A stretch of DNA of 62,724 bases, counting the filler, from Rhabdomonas costata (lineage: Eukaryota): the NCBI GenBank assembly GCA_019059605.1. It is 25 parts of 25 records of this genome, joined end to end, with 100 filler letters (N's around TTAATTAATTAA, not from the genome) between each part and the next. Parts side by side here need not be neighbours in the genome. Positions count along the whole stretch, not along the records: positions 60,316 to 62,724 come from JAHMHO010003559.1; 24 more parts are not named here. One strand, 5' to 3'. This document shows, piece by piece, positions 26,224 through 62,724 of this stretch; position 1 is the first letter of the stretch, and every line of letters begins with the position of its first letter. The position numbers and the translations under genes were made by a program. The notes beneath the pieces are model-generated. The model did not search any database and was not told the origin of the DNA. It was given only the letters and a program-made list of their open reading frames with translations.

Positions 26224-28007
26224 GTGAGTCTGTCTGCGTTGTGCGCGTCATTGTTGCATTCTCTGGTGGGTTTATCTGGTTTGCCACAGTGCGGAATGCA
26301 TCGGACCGTTTGTTGAGGAGAGGCCACGCTGTGAATGAGTTTGAAGACAAGTTCCTAGCATCACAGGCATGGATGGTGGCTGAGTCTGGACTTGACTGTG
26401 TATGCAGTGATCCGTGACGAACCCTACCGCAACTGAACTGTGTTTTGCAGAGAAACCCTCCTCGCAATTCCACCTTCCTCAACTTTAACTTTCTGCTGCT
26501 TCTCCTTTGGAGTCTTGTTTTCGTTCTTGGGAATGCCACTCATGGTGCTTGCTGATGGACCTTTCCTCGACGGCAGCTCCCGGCCATTCAACACTTGGAA
26601 GGTTGATCGAACAGATGCACACCAATGTCGCGGGGATGGCTCTGGAGGCTTGATATCCATATCCCTTCCCATACCCCATTGTGCCCCATGACAGATGTCT
26701 CTGATGTCATCATTTTTTTCGGTTTGATACGAAGCTGACGAAGCTTTGCTGCTGTTTAGCTTTTTCTTGGGTGAAAGCCGTAAGAAAAAGAAATCTGTCT
26801 CATTCGAGGGCAAAGCCGAAGCAGGCCTGGGTTTTCTTTGCGTATGCAGTGGGCCTCGCAAAACGCTGCGACCACCCTCAGGCCGGTACCTACCCGTGCC
26901 CCTTGGTGGCTCTTCTTTTTTATCTTGTGCCGCTTCTTTCGCCAGCGCAGCGGAGTATTTGTTGACGGCGCCCACTACGTATGTACCAAAACCCGCCAAA
27001 AGGCGGCCTGGTAAATCGCTCTCTGCCGCCCCACGGGGCAGGTTATATAGATTCCCGACGAAGTCACTGTGGTGAGTAGCTCGCATCCCCGAGGGCTCGG
27101 GAGGTGAGCACCCAATGGGCATGCGGTACACCACAGCCGACAGAATCCGGGCATATTCGCAGCTCACAAGTGCAGCAGACAATGGATCACCGAGCCATCA
27201 GCTGCACCCCAGCCAGCGCGCTATGCTCTCAACAGATGCTTGCCTCACGTGCGCCCTCTGCAGCCAAGGCAGACACGTCCAGTCATGGCACTTGACTACG
27301 AGCGAGCCAGGGACCCTGGGAATGACCCCGGAGACCGATAAAGACCGATAGAGACTCGGGTGTGAAGCCAGCACCGCCTGTTGCCCACCCAAATCACGGG
27401 GTTCATCCTGCTGTGCCTCGCGTCCTTGCCACCATTTGTCTCTCAAAGCTTTTTCTTCCTATTACTTTCTTCGACCTCCTCCATCAAGGTGTTTCGCTTC
27501 GCTCTTTCCTCTCGCTCCCTGGATCCCCCCCACCCCACCNNNNNNNNNNNNNNNNNNNNNNNNNNNNNNNNNNNNNNNNNNNNTTAATTAATTAANNNNN
27601 NNNNNNNNNNNNNNNNNNNNNNNNNNNNNNNNNNNNNNNTGTTGTTGGGGAGGAAGCAAAGTGAATCAGGCGGCAGGCTGAAAGGGAACCAGATAACGGG
27701 GGTGCACCCAAAGTTGGAAGGACGAAAAACCCGCTTCTCAAAATCCCCGTGGTTGCCAAGGGTGAGTTTCCAAAGGAGTGCTCTCTCCACATCGGGGGTT
27801 AGTCAAAGACTCTGCTCTGGCGCTGAGTTGTGAGTTCGACGATCTCGTATCTCGTTCGCCTTGCCCTCCCCTCCCCTCCCCCCTCATTATTTGTGCTCCT
27901 GGGGAACGCACCGCTGTGGTGTCCCTAGCACTTGTATTTGTTCTTGTATTGTTTTTGTTCATGTTTTCATGAAAATGGGGAGCGGGAGGTTGTCGGTGGG
28001 TTCACAG

Positions 28008-29606
28008 GTTTGTGATCATCACGGCGTATAGCGATGTTCCGGGGGTGACCGCGGAACTCACCTTGCGGGCCTCTCGGCTGCTGTCCGTATTGATGTGCGG
28101 GGGGTACATGCTGTACCTTTGGTTCCAGTTGTTCACTCACCGGGAGCTCTTCAACTCCGACCTGGAGGAGGAGGAGGAGCCCCTGTACTCGGCCTGGCTG
28201 GCCACGGCCTGCCTGGCGCTGACTACGGTGCTAATCGCGATGGAAAGCGAGTTCCTGGTGGACACCCTGCAGCCCGCGGCGGAGCAATGGGGGCTCAGCC
28301 AGGTACCACCCGCCGCCCCCTTCCGGTTTCCCCGCATCACAAGCGTTGGGCAGAAGAGTGATTTGATTTTGCTGTTGTGGACGTACACACATCAGACGTC
28401 GCCAAAGTTTGAGAATCGAGCTCCCCCCCCAAAAAAAAACTGAAAACCAGCTCCAACCTCTGTTCTTACCTTCAGTCCTGACGTGCGCATCAGTCACGAA
28501 ATACTTTCCCTCTTAACGACCTCAACTGGATGGTGTAAAAATCACTCAGGCCTTCCCTCCTGTCCCCTCCTATACCTGGACTGAGGTGTAAAGTGGACAC
28601 ATGTTTTACCCCACCTCCTCACCGTGGTGGGGTTGCCATATCCATGCTCCCTTTCTCTCAAGACCTCCAAGCTCTGATCGAAGGTAAGGTAGTTCCTTTG
28701 GGCTCTGTGCCGGGAAGGGATCCGCCATTCAACGTTCGCCATTCATCGTTGCTCACTGCAGGCCTTCATTAGTGTCATCCTTCTACCCATTGTCGGCAAC
28801 GCTGCGGAGCACGCCACGGCGATCGTGATGGCCTTCAAGGACAAGGTTGTTTCATTTGAAAGATTCAAGAGACTGCGGCCGTTCTCTTTTTTCGGTTCCT
28901 TCTCCTTCACTTTCACGGCCGTCCATACTCATTATATCCCAGATAAATTCCTCTGCGCATCCCAAAGTATTGAAAAGTGTCGCCACCACCACTACTAGCT
29001 GCTGTATGTGTCACTGTGTCACGGAGTCGTCCCCCTCCTCAACGAATAACAGCTTCTGTATGCGTGCTGTTTTGTATTGGCTGCGACACGTCATCAAAGT
29101 TTCAGACGTTGACACTATGTTCAGGCCTTTAGTGAAAAATACTCTGACGTGTTCCAAAAACAAGCAAAATGGCAAAAACGTTCAAAAAAAACGGAAAAAT
29201 ATCCATTAGCGAAAATTGTTGTTGTCTGGTTGTACTCCTGAGTGATTTGGCCCATGCTTCCGTTTCCCGCATTCTGCCCTCCCCCCGCCATCCCCGACAG
29301 ATGGACATCGCCATGGGGGTGGCCGTGGGCTCGTCGATCCAGATCTCCTTGTTTGTGATGCCTCTGATGGTGCTCGTCTCGTGGGCAATGGGCCTGGGGC
29401 TGGACCTGGAGTTCTCCGTGTTCGCCGTGGTGGTGCTGTTCAGCTCGGTGCTCATACTGGGCTCCATTGTGGTGCACGGGGTGTGCCACTGGCTGGCCGG
29501 GGCCCTGCTGCTGCTGGCCTACCTCATGGTGTGCGTGGTTTACTTATACACCCCGGACTCGGCCTCTACCGCGGCGGTACCCCCCCACAAGGGGGGCCGA
29601 GGCTGA
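28008..29606 (+). CDS. CAX: Ca2+/H+ antiporter (CAX family), 3' exons
   Basis: Exons 28008-28302, 28762-28845 and 29301-29606: YLWFQLFTH, acidic loop, [47 protein letters not shown] (alpha-2 repeat), then stop. Confidence 0.95.
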
Positions 29607-30208
29607 CCGTCCTGCTCGGCACCTCTCCCGTCCTTCTGCGTGGGCCGCCTTCCCCTGATCCTCCGTGAACTGTGCCCCGCTCTTTCTGACGGGGTTCTAC
29701 GAGGAGACAGGGCCGAGTTGACTTTTGCGTTCGTGAAAAAAAGCTTGTGAAAAAACCAAAAGGTAAACAAAAAAATCCAGGGGTGTCAGTATGTTGTCCC
29801 GCGCCATATTTTCTCTCATCGCGCCATGTGTCGACCGGTTTTGTATCGGTACGTGGTGTTGCTCCCGTTTTCATCGCACCGGGAGTGCGCTTTTCTGAGG
29901 CATGGCGTGGATTTCGTATGGCATTGGGTGGGGCCATACAAGGTGTGTCTTTGTATCAGCTGTTAATGTTGCATTGTGAGAAAGTCACGCTGTGGTGCTT
30001 CCCAGAATTCCTGGATATGTAATCAATGCAACATTAACAGCTGATACAAAANNNNNNNNNNNNNNNNNNNNNNNNNNNNNNNNNNNNNNNNNNNNTTAAT
30101 TAATTAANNNNNNNNNNNNNNNNNNNNNNNNNNNNNNNNNNNNNNNNNNNNGGATTGTTGGCGCCTCAAAAACATCACTTTCTGAGCCGCTGTCCACAAT
30201 GCGCTCAG

Positions 30209-31719
30209 CGAATTGCACGTCGGAGGGCTCTGTGGTGCTGCCGTGGGTGGAGGTGTGCCGCAACGACACGCTGTACGCCTGCAACGGCACGACGGGGGAG
30301 CTGTACCCCACCAACCAGACCTGCCCTGCGGAGGCCTCTCCGCCCACCCGTACGCCGCCGTTTGCCATTTGTGCTTTGTGCTTTGTGCTTTGGGGACGAG
30401 AGTGGGTGTCTGTGCGGTAGGGATTTCTCTCGAAGGCTGAAGCTTTTATTTCCCCAAGTCGATGACGCTACGTCTTTCTGAGTTTCGTCTTTTATGCGGA
30501 ATTGGGTTTTTGTTTGGAGGTACGCTGTCCCGAGCACCCGAGCGCGATGCAGTGGCTGTGAGTTCAGTGCTAGGAATGCGGGGACAATGTAGGTGTGCAT
30601 CATTTTGCAGTGGTATGCGAGTACCTCAACCACGGCTACGTCAACGGGGACTTCATCTGCGAGAAAGGGGCCAACCTGCGCTGCGTGAAGTCGGAATTCC
30701 GAGCCGTGGGGAGCTGCTGTACGCTGCGTCTTTCGCCTTCCGCCTTCTTTCCGCCTTTCGCCTTTGCTATGCCTTTCCTATGCTGCCGTTGTGCAGTTGC
30801 AGTGCTTCTTGTCTTGGCCTTTCACCCTTTGTCTTCTGGCTGAGGTTCAGCAGGCCAGGAGGAACGTTTTCTTTCGGATTGGGTTCATTTCTGGGAAATG
30901 AGAGAGCGAATATTTTTTGCAATGTGTGTCGGTGTGTTGTACAGCGGCGCCGCAGTGGGTGAACTGCAGCTATCTGAAGCAGCCCTGTGCCAACGCCTAC
31001 AGCTCCGAGCTGCAGACCTCGCTGGTGTACTGCGGGCCCAACGGGAACTTCAACAGCGCGAAGTCGCTGTGCTACCCGGACAGCGGGGAATACTAGTGCG
31101 TGACTTTTGCTTGCTTTTGATGGGGCGGTTGTTCAGGCAGGTAATGTGCTTTGTTTAGGTAGACATTTTTGTGTGCTTACCGGTAATGACATAGGCGATT
31201 GGAGATGCCGCTGAGCCAAGAAAGGAACGTTTGATTTGATTTGGGATGTTGTGGTGCCTTCTTATTTTGCTTTGCTTTGCTGTGGGCACCTCTGCGGTCA
31301 CAGCTGCAGCAACAACTACCTGGGGACGAAGCAGGACTGGATCATCCGGTGTGCCCCAGACTCACTCGCTCCGCTCGATCGATCTCTTCCCACCCCGGTC
31401 CTTCACGATGGGTTTGGGTCGAAGACATTGTGATCGCTGGATAGGCGTCGGTCGTGGACGCGATGTTTGGGAGCACAAAAAGAGGCAGAACGAGTCCCTC
31501 CCCCCTCGCGCATTGCAGTTGCCCTTTATTCCTCCTTTTGGGCTGTGCCGTGGGTGGAGGCGTGGGGCAAATGCCTCCCTCCTCCTCCCCTGTCTCTTTC
31601 TCTCTCTCTCTCTCCAATCCTTGCTCACTACAGGTCCCCTGGGGCGAGCCACTTCGGATTCCCCTGCCCCCGACGCTGAAGTCCACCAATGCGATGGATA
31701 CTGTCAATGCTGGTGGTAG
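30209..31719 (+). CDS. Cys-rich, probably secreted protein of unknown family (3' five exons)
   Basis: GT-AG exons 30209-30349, 30611-30718, 30945-31095, 31304-31350 and 31634-31719 are phase-consistent and end CPLGRATSDSPAPDAEVHQCDGYCQCWW*. Several NxT/S sequons. Confidence 0.65.
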
Positions 31720-32828
31720 TGGTGCTGGTGTTGGTGTTGTCCCAGTTCAAGAGAAGGAGCTTCTACCGCTGCGATTGGAATTTAAGATAAAGATGCTTTC
31801 TTCTACTTTATTTTTTTCGTTGGCTTTCGTGTTTGCATTGTGGTCTGGGCTTCGTGGTTGGCTACGCTTCCTGCTGAGTTGGTATATTAAGATGTATGCT
31901 CGGTCTTTTCTATTTGTAGCCATTCGTATCAGGGTTAAAGTGCGGCTTCGGTTTCATCAGCTGTGGTTTGTACCGAACCCCAGTCTCTCCCGCCGCTGCA
32001 GAGATGCCTGGCTGGATACCCCAAGTGCATAGGGGCGTTTCCCACTACCCTTGCGCCTATGTATGTTCGCCCCCGTGCCTGCAGTTCTAGTTTCGTTTCC
32101 CCTGTGGCATCCAAATCCCCCATCTAAGTGTTGCTTTTTTCGATGCCATTCCTGTGGTGTTTCGCTGCTCTCGGCCCCTCCCCCGGTGACTTGAGCTCTC
32201 TCTTGGAGAGAGTGAGAGGGTACGAGTGGATTGAGTAGATTGCGGCACACTGGAATGGTTTGTATCGTTTCCTATCGCGCCGAGATTATGGACTGGATGA
32301 TGGAACTGCGTTGTGGGTTGTTATTTTGACTGCCGGCTTGCGAGTGGCGGTACTGGTTTGGCAAAGGTTCGCCGCTGCACAAGGGGAACGAGCAGAAAAA
32401 GGTGCGGGGACAGATGACAGGCCGTCACCCCAGCTTGGTCACTGCCGGATGTGTTTCTCCTGGTGGTTGATTTGGTTGATATGCAGCTCTGTGGCGAAGG
32501 GCTGTGCTTGGGGTCTTAGGGCCTTACATCTGTGCAGCCCTTCGCCACAGAGCTGCATATCAANNNNNNNNNNNNNNNNNNNNNNNNNNNNNNNNNNNNN
32601 NNNNNNNTTAATTAATTAANNNNNNNNNNNNNNNNNNNNNNNNNNNNNNNNNNNNNNNNNNNNGGGTTGTGTGACTGGACCCTACTCTTTTCAGCTTGAC
32701 ACACACAAGCATTTTTTTCTGCTTGATTCTGGAAGAATGTTCCAGTCACATTGCTCCCATTGGGTTATTGCCTTCCGATAGAAGTTTCCTGTTACCATAG
32801 AACCAGGTTCTCTTTCCCATGTATGCAG

Positions 32829-44865: not shown

Positions 44866-45440
44866 CTGCATAGCACAGCAGATACCCAGTTGGAAATCAG
44901 CGATAGGTGACAGAGAATCGGTTCTCGAACAAAAGACCAACTTGACCAGACGGTCGGACGAGTAACCGTCCCGTTTCAGGGCGCAAAGTGCCAAAAGTTG
45001 CGCACAAAAAGTCGCAACGAGGAAAACGCAAGCGGGGCTCACGCCACCGAACAGCCCGCAATGGCGGCAATGGGGCAACCGTAACTGGGCCAGGTGTGGG
45101 AAGAGGGGGGGGGGGTCGGTTGAAGAGTAGATCGAACGAAAGCACCAACCATNNNNNNNNNNNNNNNNNNNNNNNNNNNNNNNNNNNNNNNNNNNNTTAA
45201 TTAATTAANNNNNNNNNNNNNNNNNNNNNNNNNNNNNNNNNNNNNNNNNNNNTTGTTTTTCTTAAAATATACTTTATTATCGAATCATCTCCATTATAAG
45301 CGGATGACCGTTTTTTTTCTGATTGACTCGCTCCAATTCAACCACAAAAAAAACGGTCATCCGCTTATAATGGAGATGATTCGATAATAAAGTATATTTT
45401 AAGAAAAACTACCAAACCGTCTTTTTTGCTGATTTTTTTT

Positions 45441-59428: not shown

Positions 59429-60490
59429 AGTGGGTAAGTGTTAGTGAACTTTCTCAGCGCTCATCTCAAGTTCCGCGACTCTGGTCAGACATCAGGCGAC
59501 CGATGTCCCCAATCTCGTCACGGGCACTGGGTCCCTATGTTTCACAGGGGAAGTCCTGGTTGGGGGCCGTCTTCACCATCTCGTCGTAAATATAGAATTG
59601 AGCCGATTTCGGTGCTGGGCAGTCCTCATATCAACAGTTACCCTTTGCATGCAACTCAACGTTTGTGCTCCTTCCGTGGTTTTTGTGTGTTTTTCAATGG
59701 TCCCAAGGCCAGAAAGGTGCCAAGACCAAAGAAAGAAAGAAAGAAAGAAAAACCCGCTACGAAAACCGGAAGGCCTTGTGCGCGTCTGGGTGTTTTTGAT
59801 CACTCTTTGCCAAAGTGTGCGTGTGTCTGTATGTGAGAAGCAGGGTGTTCGCAGAAGAGCAGTGGAGGCGGGCGAGAGATGATAATACCTTATATAGCTG
59901 CCGAGAAAGCTCCTAATAAGGGGGACGTGTGGGTTCGGGCGATGATGACGCAATGACTTCCTGGAGCGGTAGAAAGTGGTTGCGTGTAGAAAGAGAAGGT
60001 TCTGCGCGTCCTTCCACTCGCATATAGGATGAGCAATGCCTCTGGTTTCACCATAAGCGCTTCGCTTCCACTTCTGTTGCATGTCTCGGCTGCGCTCTCC
60101 CATTGCAGCTACCCGGAGCTCCCAGAATGCCATCAGCAGAACAGCGTTCTGGAAGGATTCTCACCCCCTGGAGGGCACTGTCGGAGGTTGGCCTGTGTGA
60201 AGACCACCACCAAAANNNNNNNNNNNNNNNNNNNNNNNNNNNNNNNNNNNNNNNNNNNNTTAATTAATTAANNNNNNNNNNNNNNNNNNNNNNNNNNNNN
60301 NNNNNNNNNNNNNNNGTTTTGGAACAGTGACTGCAGCATCATTAGACCCCTGAAGCATCGAAGAAAAAGAATAGAAGAAAGCACGCATCATTACAGCCCT
60401 AACTTTCAGGTTGTCTTCGCGAAAGGCAACCTGAAAGTTAGGGCTGTAATGATGCGTGCTTTCTTCTATTCTTTTTCTTCGATGCTTCAG

Positions 60491-62724
60491 GGGTCTAATG
60501 ATGCTGCAGTCACTGTTCGAGAACCCCTTCAACCACAAGGCCTTCGGGTTTCCGCAGGAAACGTATCGAAAGCACCTGTGGGATATGACTAACCTCATGT
60601 TGGAGCAGTCGAACCAGCTTCCCCATCAGACGCCTCTGGGCGAGGCCGTAACCGGGTCCGTGGACGACCTCCAGCACGTCATTTCCAAACTACCGCCATC
60701 TCTTCCGGTCACCAAGAGCTTCATTTCTAGCCTAGAGATCCAAGTGGAGCCTGTGAGGATCCTCCGCTATGATTCCAGCCGTGCTAACCTGCTCTCCGTG
60801 TTGCTGTTCTATCCCTGGACCCCATGGTTCAAGGGCACCTTTCTGGGAACTCCCCACCTCTGGGTTTTGATGATCTTCTGGGCTGTTGTGCTTTCTTGGC
60901 TGGGGTTCTCGGAAGACCCAGTGGCACGCACCTTTCGTATGCCTGACCCTACCGACGCCAGTGTGCCTGTGAGCATACAGCAAGTGTACAAGGATGCCGC
61001 AACGACACTGAGCAACAACTTTGTCAAGGTGCAGAAGCTGGCCATCTTCATCCTCGGTCTGTACGTCAGCCTTACCCTGGCCCGGTGGTGGAGCATGCGA
61101 GACGTCTACCAAGGGGTGTGCAACCGGACCAAGGACTTGGCGGTTATGGTTGGGGCCTATCTGCATGCCCCGGACCACGAGGGAGGGGAGGACACGAAGC
61201 CGGTGCAGCACCTGCGAATGAAGATTGTGCGATATATGAACCTGGCACACGCCCTTGTGCTGAGCGAGGCATCTCGTGAGGAGGAAGAGCCCTGGGACTC
61301 GCTGCGTCGTCGGGGATTCATCACGGAGGACGAGGTGAAGCTTCTCGATCCCATTGAAAAGAACCGCTATGCCGTTGTGTACCTTTGGGTGCGGGACTTG
61401 TTGAGGCACTGCGACGAGAACCAGCTTCTTCCGAATACGTACATCTTGGCTCGGCTTCAGAAGGCTGTCACCCGAGTGAACGACTATGCCGACCAAATTG
61501 TGAACATGTTCCTCGACACTCAGCTGCCCTACACGTACATCCAGGTGGTCAGCTCTATTATTCAGGTGCTGCACTGGAAGGCAGTGTGAACACATGCCGA
61601 CCTACAACTGCGGCAGGGCCAACACAAGGGTTTTTCTTTCGCTTTGAACTTGAGTGCTTCTTGTGTTCCATAGCGCGTCGTCGTCCTTCCCATCTCATCA
61701 GTGTATGAGTCTGACGTATGAAGAAACCTCTTATTTCTGATGTTGACTGCTGATGTCATTGTGCAGGTTTTCATGTTTGTCAACGTCTGCCAGCAGGCCT
61801 TCTATCTCAACAACTTTTGGGATGACACTGGAGTGAAGCAGCTTGCGGAGATCTTCTGGCCGTACTTCCAGACTATCACGAGCGTGGTTGCCTTCGAGAG
61901 CTTCTTGATCCTTCACGTCTTCCTCACCAACCCTTTTGGTACGGAGGACTTTATTTCTTTTTTTCTTCTTTGTGGCATTTTTCTCCATGCCCCCCCCCCG
62001 GCATGTGTTGGCCTCTGGGGCCTGTTGCTAAGAAAGGCTAGTATTGGTACTATGGTGGAACCCGTATTACTGCAGTTGGCGTGAGTCGCAAATACATCAT
62101 TGATTTCTCGGGTTTGGTTGCTTTTGTTGGGTTTCTGTTGGTCTGTTGGTGAGAGGGGTGTGGCCCCCCAAAGGACATATGACATTTTCATTTGGAACTC
62201 ATGTGCAGCTGTAGCTGCGCTGATTAGATTGCATCACATCGTAGGTTTCTTCCACCTCTGCACTGATCCTGGATGCCCAGCCGCTGGTGACGTATTTTGT
62301 TTTGGAGGGGGCAAATGGGCCGGGGAGGTGGGGGTGGGATATGCAGGCAAGGACGCCCTGCACTTTCCTACTGAGCGCTTTCTGGACCAGCTGTGGCACC
62401 ACACCCTGCGCCTTATTCAGCAGCCAGCCACGGTTCCCTCCGCGGCCGCTCCCTCCTCGATCACCCCAAATGACGACGAAGAAGAGGAGAACAGCACATA
62501 CTCTGGACTCTGCAGCGAATGGACCCGGTGGGTAGGGACCCTGATGCACCGCGGGCCACTGAAGGTGTACAAGTACGTCCCGTGGAAGGCCCACCTGCTG
62601 AGCATCCTCCCTGTCATCCCGATCACGCCATGGTGGAAGGGGACCATCCTGGAAAGCCGCACCTTCATCTTTCAGATGGTGTTTTGGTGCGGCTGGCTGG
62701 CCTGGGTTGGATTTACCAACACCC
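60491..62724 (+). CDS. Multi-unit bestrophin (end of unit A, full unit B, start of unit C), partial at both ends
   Basis: Exons 60491-61565, 61767-61938 and 62347 to contig end. Motifs WFKGT, FILGLYVSLTLARWW, IVRYMNLAHALVL, GFITEDE, QLPYTYIQVV, LTNPFG. The NPF motif and the W.KGT N-terminal motif each occur twice in one frame. Confidence 0.92.

Follow-up and report, generated by a model that had tools for sequence, protein, structure and literature searches.

A Rhabdomonas costata gene that encodes several bestrophin units in one polypeptide

The final contig in a window of Rhabdomonas costata DNA carries a genuine nuclear gene for a concatenated bestrophin, in which several complete and diverged four-helix units are joined in one polypeptide. 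The window, which is the whole stretch of DNA that was analysed, has a length of 62,724 bases. It consists of 25 contigs of 2,409-2,444 bp each and is not a single locus; the bestrophin chain gene is found on the contig at 60316-62724 (2,409 bp). To our knowledge, the described bestrophins, from those of bacteria to human BEST1 (a retinal disease gene), form rings in which the five chains are separate. In R. costata a single chain may supply most or all of a channel for which five are normally needed.

The gene and its transcript-derived relatives

The gene consists of three exons joined by two GT..AG introns, and the spliced product is free of stop codons over 541 amino acids (Table 1). Two frames of the plus strand are open, one from 60453 to 61589 (378 codons) and the other from 62085 to 62723, where it reaches the contig end. 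The first exon starts at 60491, directly after the AG of the preceding intron, which is also where an earlier sequence-only reading of this DNA had placed the start. The related protein P0002 (described below) has a tryptophan just ahead of the first encoded residue, in keeping with a split codon that the G at 60491 completes. The product begins with the end of one unit and continues through a linker, a complete second unit and another linker into the start of a third. This is the order that the sequence-only reading had proposed for a single spliced frame, and it is seen in RNA-derived proteins as well. Both unit junctions lie within exons (exons a and c), again as proposed. The two linkers are present, but their lengths had been put at about 53 and about 50 amino acids and are 46 and 43 on remeasurement.

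The intron model is confirmed by P0001, another R. costata protein, which aligns without gaps over both splice junctions. In tblastn the matching pieces begin and stop exactly at the borders of the first intron. Exon b is 82.5% identical to residues 668-730 of P0001, and exon c matches residues 728-864, with the start of unit 3 being 77% identical to unit 3 of P0001. Units 1 and 2 do not share the intron positions that can be seen, in keeping with an old duplication.

The units are related to each other and to known bestrophins. Exon a matches the Pfam Bestrophin family PF01062 (E 7.2e-16, 58.6 bits, cut-off 24.2), a result in favour of the family assignment for which the sequence-only reading had suggested this very comparison. 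The short exons b and c gave no family match when searched alone against Pfam. Internal repeats were tested by Smith-Waterman local alignment with 2000 shuffles. The end of unit 1 aligns ungapped with the end of unit 2 (score 66, z 8.4), and the start of unit 2 aligns ungapped with the start of unit 3 (score 121, z 14.1); 0 of 2000 shuffles scored as high in either case, and the gap-free matches noted earlier between these segments hold up. A BLASTP comparison of the spliced product with itself gave the self-hit only.

Table 1. Coordinates of the gene parts and of the fold-back at the contig end
Feature	Position	Strand	Description
Fold-back arm	60316-60417	.	Reverse-complement copy of 60423-60524; not part of the gene
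3' end of preceding intron	60423-60490	+	Pyrimidine-rich tract, AG at 60489-60490
Exon a	60491-61565	+	Unit 1 end, linker 1, first 273 amino acids of unit 2
Unit 1 end	60492-60608	+	39 amino acids, in exon a
Linker 1	60609-60746	+	46 amino acids, in exon a
Unit 2 start	60747-61565	+	273 amino acids, hydrophobic helices 1 and 2
Intron, conventional GT..AG	61566-61766	+	201 nucleotides; gapless P0001 alignment across junction
Exon b	61767-61938	+	Unit 2 helices 3 and 4, up to the Asn-Pro-Phe motif
Intron, conventional GT..AG	61939-62346	+	408 nucleotides, phase 1; ungapped to P0001 across junction
Exon c	62347-62724	+	Unit 2 end, linker 2, unit 3 start; open at contig end
Unit 2 end	to 62423	+	In exon c
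Linker 2	62424-62552	+	43 amino acids, in exon c
Unit 3 start	62553-62724	+	First 57 amino acids, in exon c

A frame antisense to unit 2 is also open (60732-61601, minus strand, 289 codons). Considered as a gene, it has no Pfam match, and it is read as a shadow frame of a GC-rich coding strand.

Two transcript-derived proteins of R. costata contain more than one unit. A word-indexed search for longer proteins returned a single match, P0001 (labelled Rhabdomonas costata RCo002048 in EukProt), which has 1,315 amino acids and is 73% identical to the window product with 100% query coverage. When 1.84 billion representatives were scanned in full with HMMER, 284 proteins came out at E <= 0.001 and only two of them at E <= 1e-30; the best match was P0002 (568 amino acids, EukProt label R. 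costata RCo002043). P0002 is 100% identical to the window product over the first 120 amino acids, which run from the end of unit 1 through the whole of linker 1 into unit 2, and it is identical at 251 of 261 residues overall (96.2%). P0001 and P0002 are 78% identical. P0002 is the product of the same gene, of an allele or of a very recent paralogue, and P0001 is that of a paralogue. The RCo proteins were predicted from a Trinity transcriptome of R. costata, as stated in a passage of the genome paper (PMC8219788), and being derived from a transcriptome they provide evidence at the RNA level that is independent of the DNA contig.

The number of units was counted with a profile built from the R. 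costata units. P0001 matches this profile at residues 17-365, 394-768, 804-1160 and 1187-1314. The fourth match covers profile positions 6-119 only and the protein ends there, so that P0001 contains three complete units and the start of a fourth. P0001 matches PF01062 in three stretches (E 4.7e-55) and also PF25539 (E 9.9e-17), and P0002 matches PF01062 with E 2.9e-21. P0002, which starts with methionine, comprises all of unit 1 and a portion of unit 2; since it begins with unit 1, the units called A, B and C in the sequence-only reading are the first, second and third of the protein. Overall there are at least three units per chain on the window contig and at least four in the paralogue P0001, and the earlier claim of a natural chain of at least three bestrophin units stands. 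Among 153 proteins examined (151 matches to the exon-a product of the window and two cluster members), P0001 and P0002 are the only ones with more than one unit.

Two further R. costata proteins bear on the number of units. P0114 (RCo002038) is a fragment of 117 amino acids which is 27-37% identical to units 1-3 and 26% identical to P0005, or 29-40% by local alignment (31-40% for units 1-3). It has no overlap with the known part of unit 4, and it could be either the remainder of unit 4 or a fifth unit type. P0005 (RCo032468) is a stand-alone single-unit bestrophin of 360 amino acids that starts with methionine, and it may serve as a free fifth subunit or just form a channel of its own.

Units, linkers and fold

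The units of the chain are old and diverged, and each has kept its own identity. Orthologous units of the two paralogues are 76-87% identical, while units within one chain are 29-42% identical. The single-unit paralogue P0005 is 27-37% identical to the units, about the same distance as that between units of the chain. An insertion of about 20 amino acids in the loop between helix 1 and helix 2 is common to units 2 and 4, and units 1 and 3 are without it. When the window product is aligned with P0001, the blocks within units are mostly 70-97% identical, with a dip to 57-63% inside unit 2. The blocks in linker 1 are 57% and 37% identical and the most divergent block in linker 2 is 13% identical, and the gaps of the alignment fall in linker 2. 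This comparison shows that every unit is under constraint and that the linkers are not.

The linkers have a length of 43-55 amino acids, and 51-61% of their residues are Pro, Ser, Thr, Gly, Gln, Asn, Glu, Asp or Lys. Orthologous linkers retain some similarity, with 19 of 44 residues identical in linker 1 (0 of 1000 shuffles reach the score) and a score for linker 2 that is reached by 7 of 1000 shuffles. None of the eight non-orthologous linker pairs scored above shuffles (65-919 of 1000 reach the score), and no words of four or five residues were found in common across these pairs. Most units are preceded by a weak N-terminal motif, a Trp-rich stretch and Gly followed about six residues on by Pro-Leu-Arg/Lys. 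This motif precedes unit 1 right after the start methionine, and it is therefore part of the unit and not of the linker.

An artefact as the source of the chain, in the form of a chimeric assembly or a gene model that wrongly joins neighbouring single-unit bestrophin genes, is extremely improbable. The contig is short, its 5' end is most likely a fold-back chimera, and transcriptome assemblers can fuse paralogues. However, the fold-back stops at 60524, before both unit junctions, which lie further in within continuous open exons, so the finding of a bestrophin chain is unaffected by it. The same architecture occurs in the DNA and in two RNA-derived proteins that share 78% of their residues, the linkers have no stop codon, and orthologous linker 1 is recognisably conserved. 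The identities within the chain and between paralogues, together with junctions present in the DNA contig and in the RNA-derived proteins, bear out the earlier view that this is old duplication and not misassembly.

Head-to-tail fusion of such units is topologically sound. Hydropathy gives unit 2 of the window four hydrophobic segments and the linkers no such segment. With an even number of helices, a unit has both of its ends on one side of the membrane. In solved bestrophins both ends of each unit are cytoplasmic, and by homology with these the ends of the R. costata units would be cytoplasmic too, which supports the topological argument already made from the sequence.

Comparisons with solved structures point to the bestrophin fold. 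A phmmer search against PDB sequences gave nothing but bestrophins (13 distinct sequences), with best E values of 7.5e-09 for P0001 and 4.5e-06 for the window exon. An AlphaFold2 model was made of P0002, the near-identical product, from an alignment of 60 rows, with a mean predicted local distance difference test score (pLDDT) of 75.7 and a predicted template modelling score (pTM) of 0.64. For residues from about 50 to 350 (unit 1) the means of 10-residue blocks are mostly 87-98 pLDDT, with two blocks at 67-72, and for residues from about 350 to 460 (linker 1 and the start of unit 2) they are 32-64. The linkers are thus predicted to be disordered and flexible. All 34 chains listed by Foldseek for this model are bestrophins, among them human BEST1 (8d1i_A, E 8.2e-08) and KpBest chains with a target template modelling score (TM-score) of up to 0.83. 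Unit 1 as modelled thus has the fold of a bestrophin, with four membrane helices and a helical cytosolic body.

The pore features of bestrophins are largely retained. The pore-helix Phe, Gly and Arg-Trp-Trp are kept in units 1-4 in HMMER alignments to human BEST1 and in the unit alignment, and the conserved Phe aligns with the pore-neck Phe of human BEST1 in all four units. The next neck position is Leu, Leu, Met and Leu in units 1-4. The position one turn before the neck Phe is Ser, Lys, Asn and Asn in units 1-4 if the alignment is ungapped, and near this position HMMER places a one-residue gap differently between alignments. A neck chemistry specific to each unit may be taken as a lead and not as a result. 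Animal bestrophins have an acidic run, the Ca2+ clasp, after an Asn-Pro-Phe-Gly motif. In the unit alignment no such run is apparent after Asn-Pro-Phe of the R. costata units, where the residues seem to be mixed and non-acidic. Gating of the R. costata chain by Ca2+ is doubtful.

The proposed ring and its relation to known systems

The conservation of the units and the drift of the linkers suggest that the units work as tethered subunits. Position-specific conservation of units combined with drifting linkers is the pattern expected of such subunits in a pseudo-symmetric assembly. In the proposed architecture the units are joined head to tail by hydrophilic, flexible linkers that would be on the cytoplasmic side by homology, and the chain would stay uncut. 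The units would lie next to one another as protomers do in an ordinary bestrophin pentamer, surrounding a single central anion (Cl-/HCO3-) pore. A fixed and different unit would hold each ring position, which would make the pore pseudo-symmetric and asymmetric. The ring would most likely be closed by a fifth unit in the same chain, or failing that by the single-unit RCo032468. The chances are a little better than even that the chain is uncleaved and that its units lie side by side in a single bestrophin-type ring around an anion pore. The narrower proposal, that there are exactly five units and that the protein is a natural single-chain pentameric anion channel which arose in euglenids independently of the PF25539-type proteins of green algae, is tentative and has chances somewhat below even. 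If true, the pore would have five different walls and possibly one Lys at the neck, from unit 2, which is impossible in a homopentamer.

Complex prediction gave weak support for the pairing of units. For unit 1 with unit 2 of P0001 the score was 0.50, and the best of three controls scored 0.00. The mark used for these predictions is reached by 51 of 78 solved complexes and by 2 of 108 mismatched pairs; at 0.60 or under lie 5 of those 78 complexes and all 4 of the mismatches that passed (of 180). Contact agreement between runs is 86% or more, and the pLDDT of the partner is at least 74. Because bestrophin pentamers have already been solved, the pass may reflect the model's having learnt these structures.

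Several points weigh against the proposed single-chain ring or its supports, beginning with the weakness of the predicted pairing. All of the sequences are open-ended, with P0001 ending within unit 4, P0002 within unit 2 and the contig within unit 3. No extension of the chain was found when P0001 was compared with proteins of near length (8,000 candidates scored, giving only itself), and residues 1100-1315 of P0001 had no match among shorter proteins (421 candidates). Two metagenome scans, one with alignment A2 and one with P0021 alone, gave no relative. The junction between units 2 and 3 is covered by RNA of the paralogue only and by none of this gene. In addition, the 10 of 261 residues at which P0002 and the window product disagree are clustered, so that P0002 may come from an allele, from a recent paralogue or from a transcript assembly that is partly chimeric. 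Finally, the clade that unites the units in the tree described below has a branch support of 94 in the Shimodaira-Hasegawa-like approximate likelihood ratio test (SH-aLRT), which is below the star threshold and comes from a quick method.

The units might also be linked without forming a closed single-chain ring, which is distinctly unlikely. Four units of the chain could combine with one separate single-unit protein such as RCo032468 (a 4+1 arrangement), or mixed chains could form cross-linked rings. The documented units are only four, and the stand-alone P0005 is present and groups with unit 1. Linkers of 43-55 amino acids are also long enough for arrangements of non-neighbouring units. However, P0001 breaks off inside unit 4, so further units may follow, and P0114 might supply the remainder of unit 4 or represent a fifth type of unit.

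Cleavage of the chain into separate subunits is an unlikely alternative to the uncut chain. As a polyprotein, its linkers would be cut by a protease, giving different single subunits in fixed 1:1 amounts and an ordinary non-covalent hetero-pentamer. Linkers that are long, hydrophilic and disordered in the model would be accessible to a protease, and cleavage accounts equally well for each unit keeping its own identity. Polyproteins occur in euglenids, with examples being RBCS with eight units, light-harvesting complex (LHC) proteins and PGK in the passages of one paper (PMC4938576). As described there, the units of the plastid polyproteins (RBCS, LHCPII, PGK) are near-identical and are separated by a conserved decapeptide linker, a plastid-targeting presequence is present, and cleavage takes place in the plastid (PMC4938576). 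The R. costata chain comes from the same group of organisms and likewise has several homologous units in one open reading frame, but it has none of the three sequence hallmarks. Its units are diverged and not near-identical, and the linkers lack a motif in all eight non-orthologous pairs. There is also no targeting presequence, if the methionine starts are the true ones; P0001 and P0002 start with methionine and unit 1 follows within 16-17 residues, and in P0001 no hydrophobic stretch comes before helix 1 of unit 1 (57-75). R. costata is also not known to have a plastid. R. costata is called a primary osmotroph in a part of its genome paper (PMC8219788).

The tree favours duplication of the units inside this lineage. 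A quick maximum-likelihood tree was made of 116 rows, namely five unit rows and those 111 of the 151 single-unit relatives that cover at least 240 profile positions. It left out 40 short relatives, the unit 4 fragment, the partial units of the window, and P0114, P0021 and P0054. Units 1-3, P0005 and the metagenome protein P0003 form one clade, with the SH-aLRT value given above. Inside this clade P0005 is placed with unit 1 (85), and units 2 and 3 pair with each other (85).

Chained bestrophins may occur in other organisms. P0021 is a metagenome protein from the Joint Genome Institute (JGI) with 291 amino acids, encoded on a contig of 1,055 bp. It contains a unit, then about 45 residues, and then a stretch like the one before unit 4. 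Its end matches the pre-unit-4 motif of P0001 with a score of 44, which 0 of 1000 shuffles reach and which is the best of eight comparisons. The chained design is thus probably present in at least one further organism, judging from this short protein. In the ESM Atlas, the first neighbour of P0001 is a cluster with a representative of 2,002 amino acids and 66 members, mostly Chlorophyta, and PF25539 is found in all members. The length of the representative fits five units of about 400 amino acids. P0001 scores far higher with PF01062 than with PF25539 and there is no multi-unit protein among the 151 listed relatives, so the R. costata chain likely had an origin independent of the PF25539 type. 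If chained bestrophins have indeed evolved repeatedly, this would suggest a real benefit, for example fixed stoichiometry, asymmetric selectivity or asymmetric gating.

The R. costata chain resembles canonical bestrophins in its units and differs from them in its architecture. The canonical proteins (BEST1-4, PDB 8d1i and 4rdq; KpBest, 4wd7 and 6ivn) are pentamers of single-domain subunits. Like these, each R. costata unit scores above the cut-off of PF01062 and has four hydrophobic helices, Arg-Trp-Trp and the pore-neck Phe. Unlike these, the R. costata protein has several diverged units per chain instead of one.

The principle of fusing pore subunits is known from other channels. In the four-repeat Nav/Cav, the two-repeat TPC and K2P, homologous pore subunits are fused head to tail with cytoplasmic linkers and form a pseudo-symmetric pore. 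The R. costata units likewise are homologous, head to tail, diverged and position-specific. In contrast, the fold is unrelated, and Nav/Cav rings are four-fold while the parent assembly of bestrophins is five-fold, with at least four units here. A natural chain of this kind would correspond, for a five-fold ring, to the step that led to the four-repeat sodium and calcium channels. It would demonstrate that fusion can turn such a ring into one chain, and each wall of the pore could then be tuned separately in evolution. Concatenated bestrophin constructs, which serve to find out how many mutant subunits it takes to disable a channel, would also have a natural template in it. The gene flags a channel of unassigned role in R. 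costata, a colourless euglenid and a freshwater osmotrophic flagellate.

No description of several bestrophin domains in one chain was found in full-text literature searches covering titles, abstract openings and passages, in agreement with the sequence-only reading, which had known of no tandem bestrophin of this kind. The word bestrophin has 0 occurrences in the main text of the R. costata genome paper (PMC8219788). The nearest published oddity is the rhodopsin-bestrophin fusion. Such fusions from unicellular algae, the bestrhodopsins, form giant pentameric channels (Rozenberg et al. 2022, as cited in the review PMC11453091). They likewise are unusual multi-domain bestrophin chains of protists, but R. 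costata fuses bestrophin domains to each other. A bestrhodopsin chain has one bestrophin domain and one or two rhodopsins, with five chains still assembling.

Contig ends and other parts of the window

The bestrophin relatives in the window are confined to the final contig. With P0001, P0005 and P0114 as tblastn queries, matches fall within 60465-62723 only and the other contigs have none. The contigs are separated by N44-TTAATTAATTAA-N44 spacers, as at 60216-60315. Such a spacer has stop codons in all six frames, and features are not readable across it.

Several contigs of the window have fold-backs at their ends, which are probably chimeras of DNA amplification or assembly. At the 5' end of the bestrophin contig the inverted repeat I1 has arms of 102 nucleotides that are 97% complementary, with a gap of 5 nucleotides. 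The segment 60316-60417 is most likely an amplification or assembly chimera and not genuine upstream sequence. A second terminal fold-back, of 61 nucleotides and exact, is found in the contig that starts at 45253, and fold-backs of 23-24 nucleotides are found at the 3' ends of the contigs at 27640-30051 and 30152-32563. Whole-genome amplification generates fold-backs of this kind. The published draft genome of R. costata was made from whole-genome-amplified DNA, as stated in a passage of the paper (PMC8219788). In non-coding sequence of the contig that precedes the bestrophin contig there is a short (AAAG)n microsatellite at 59729-59752.

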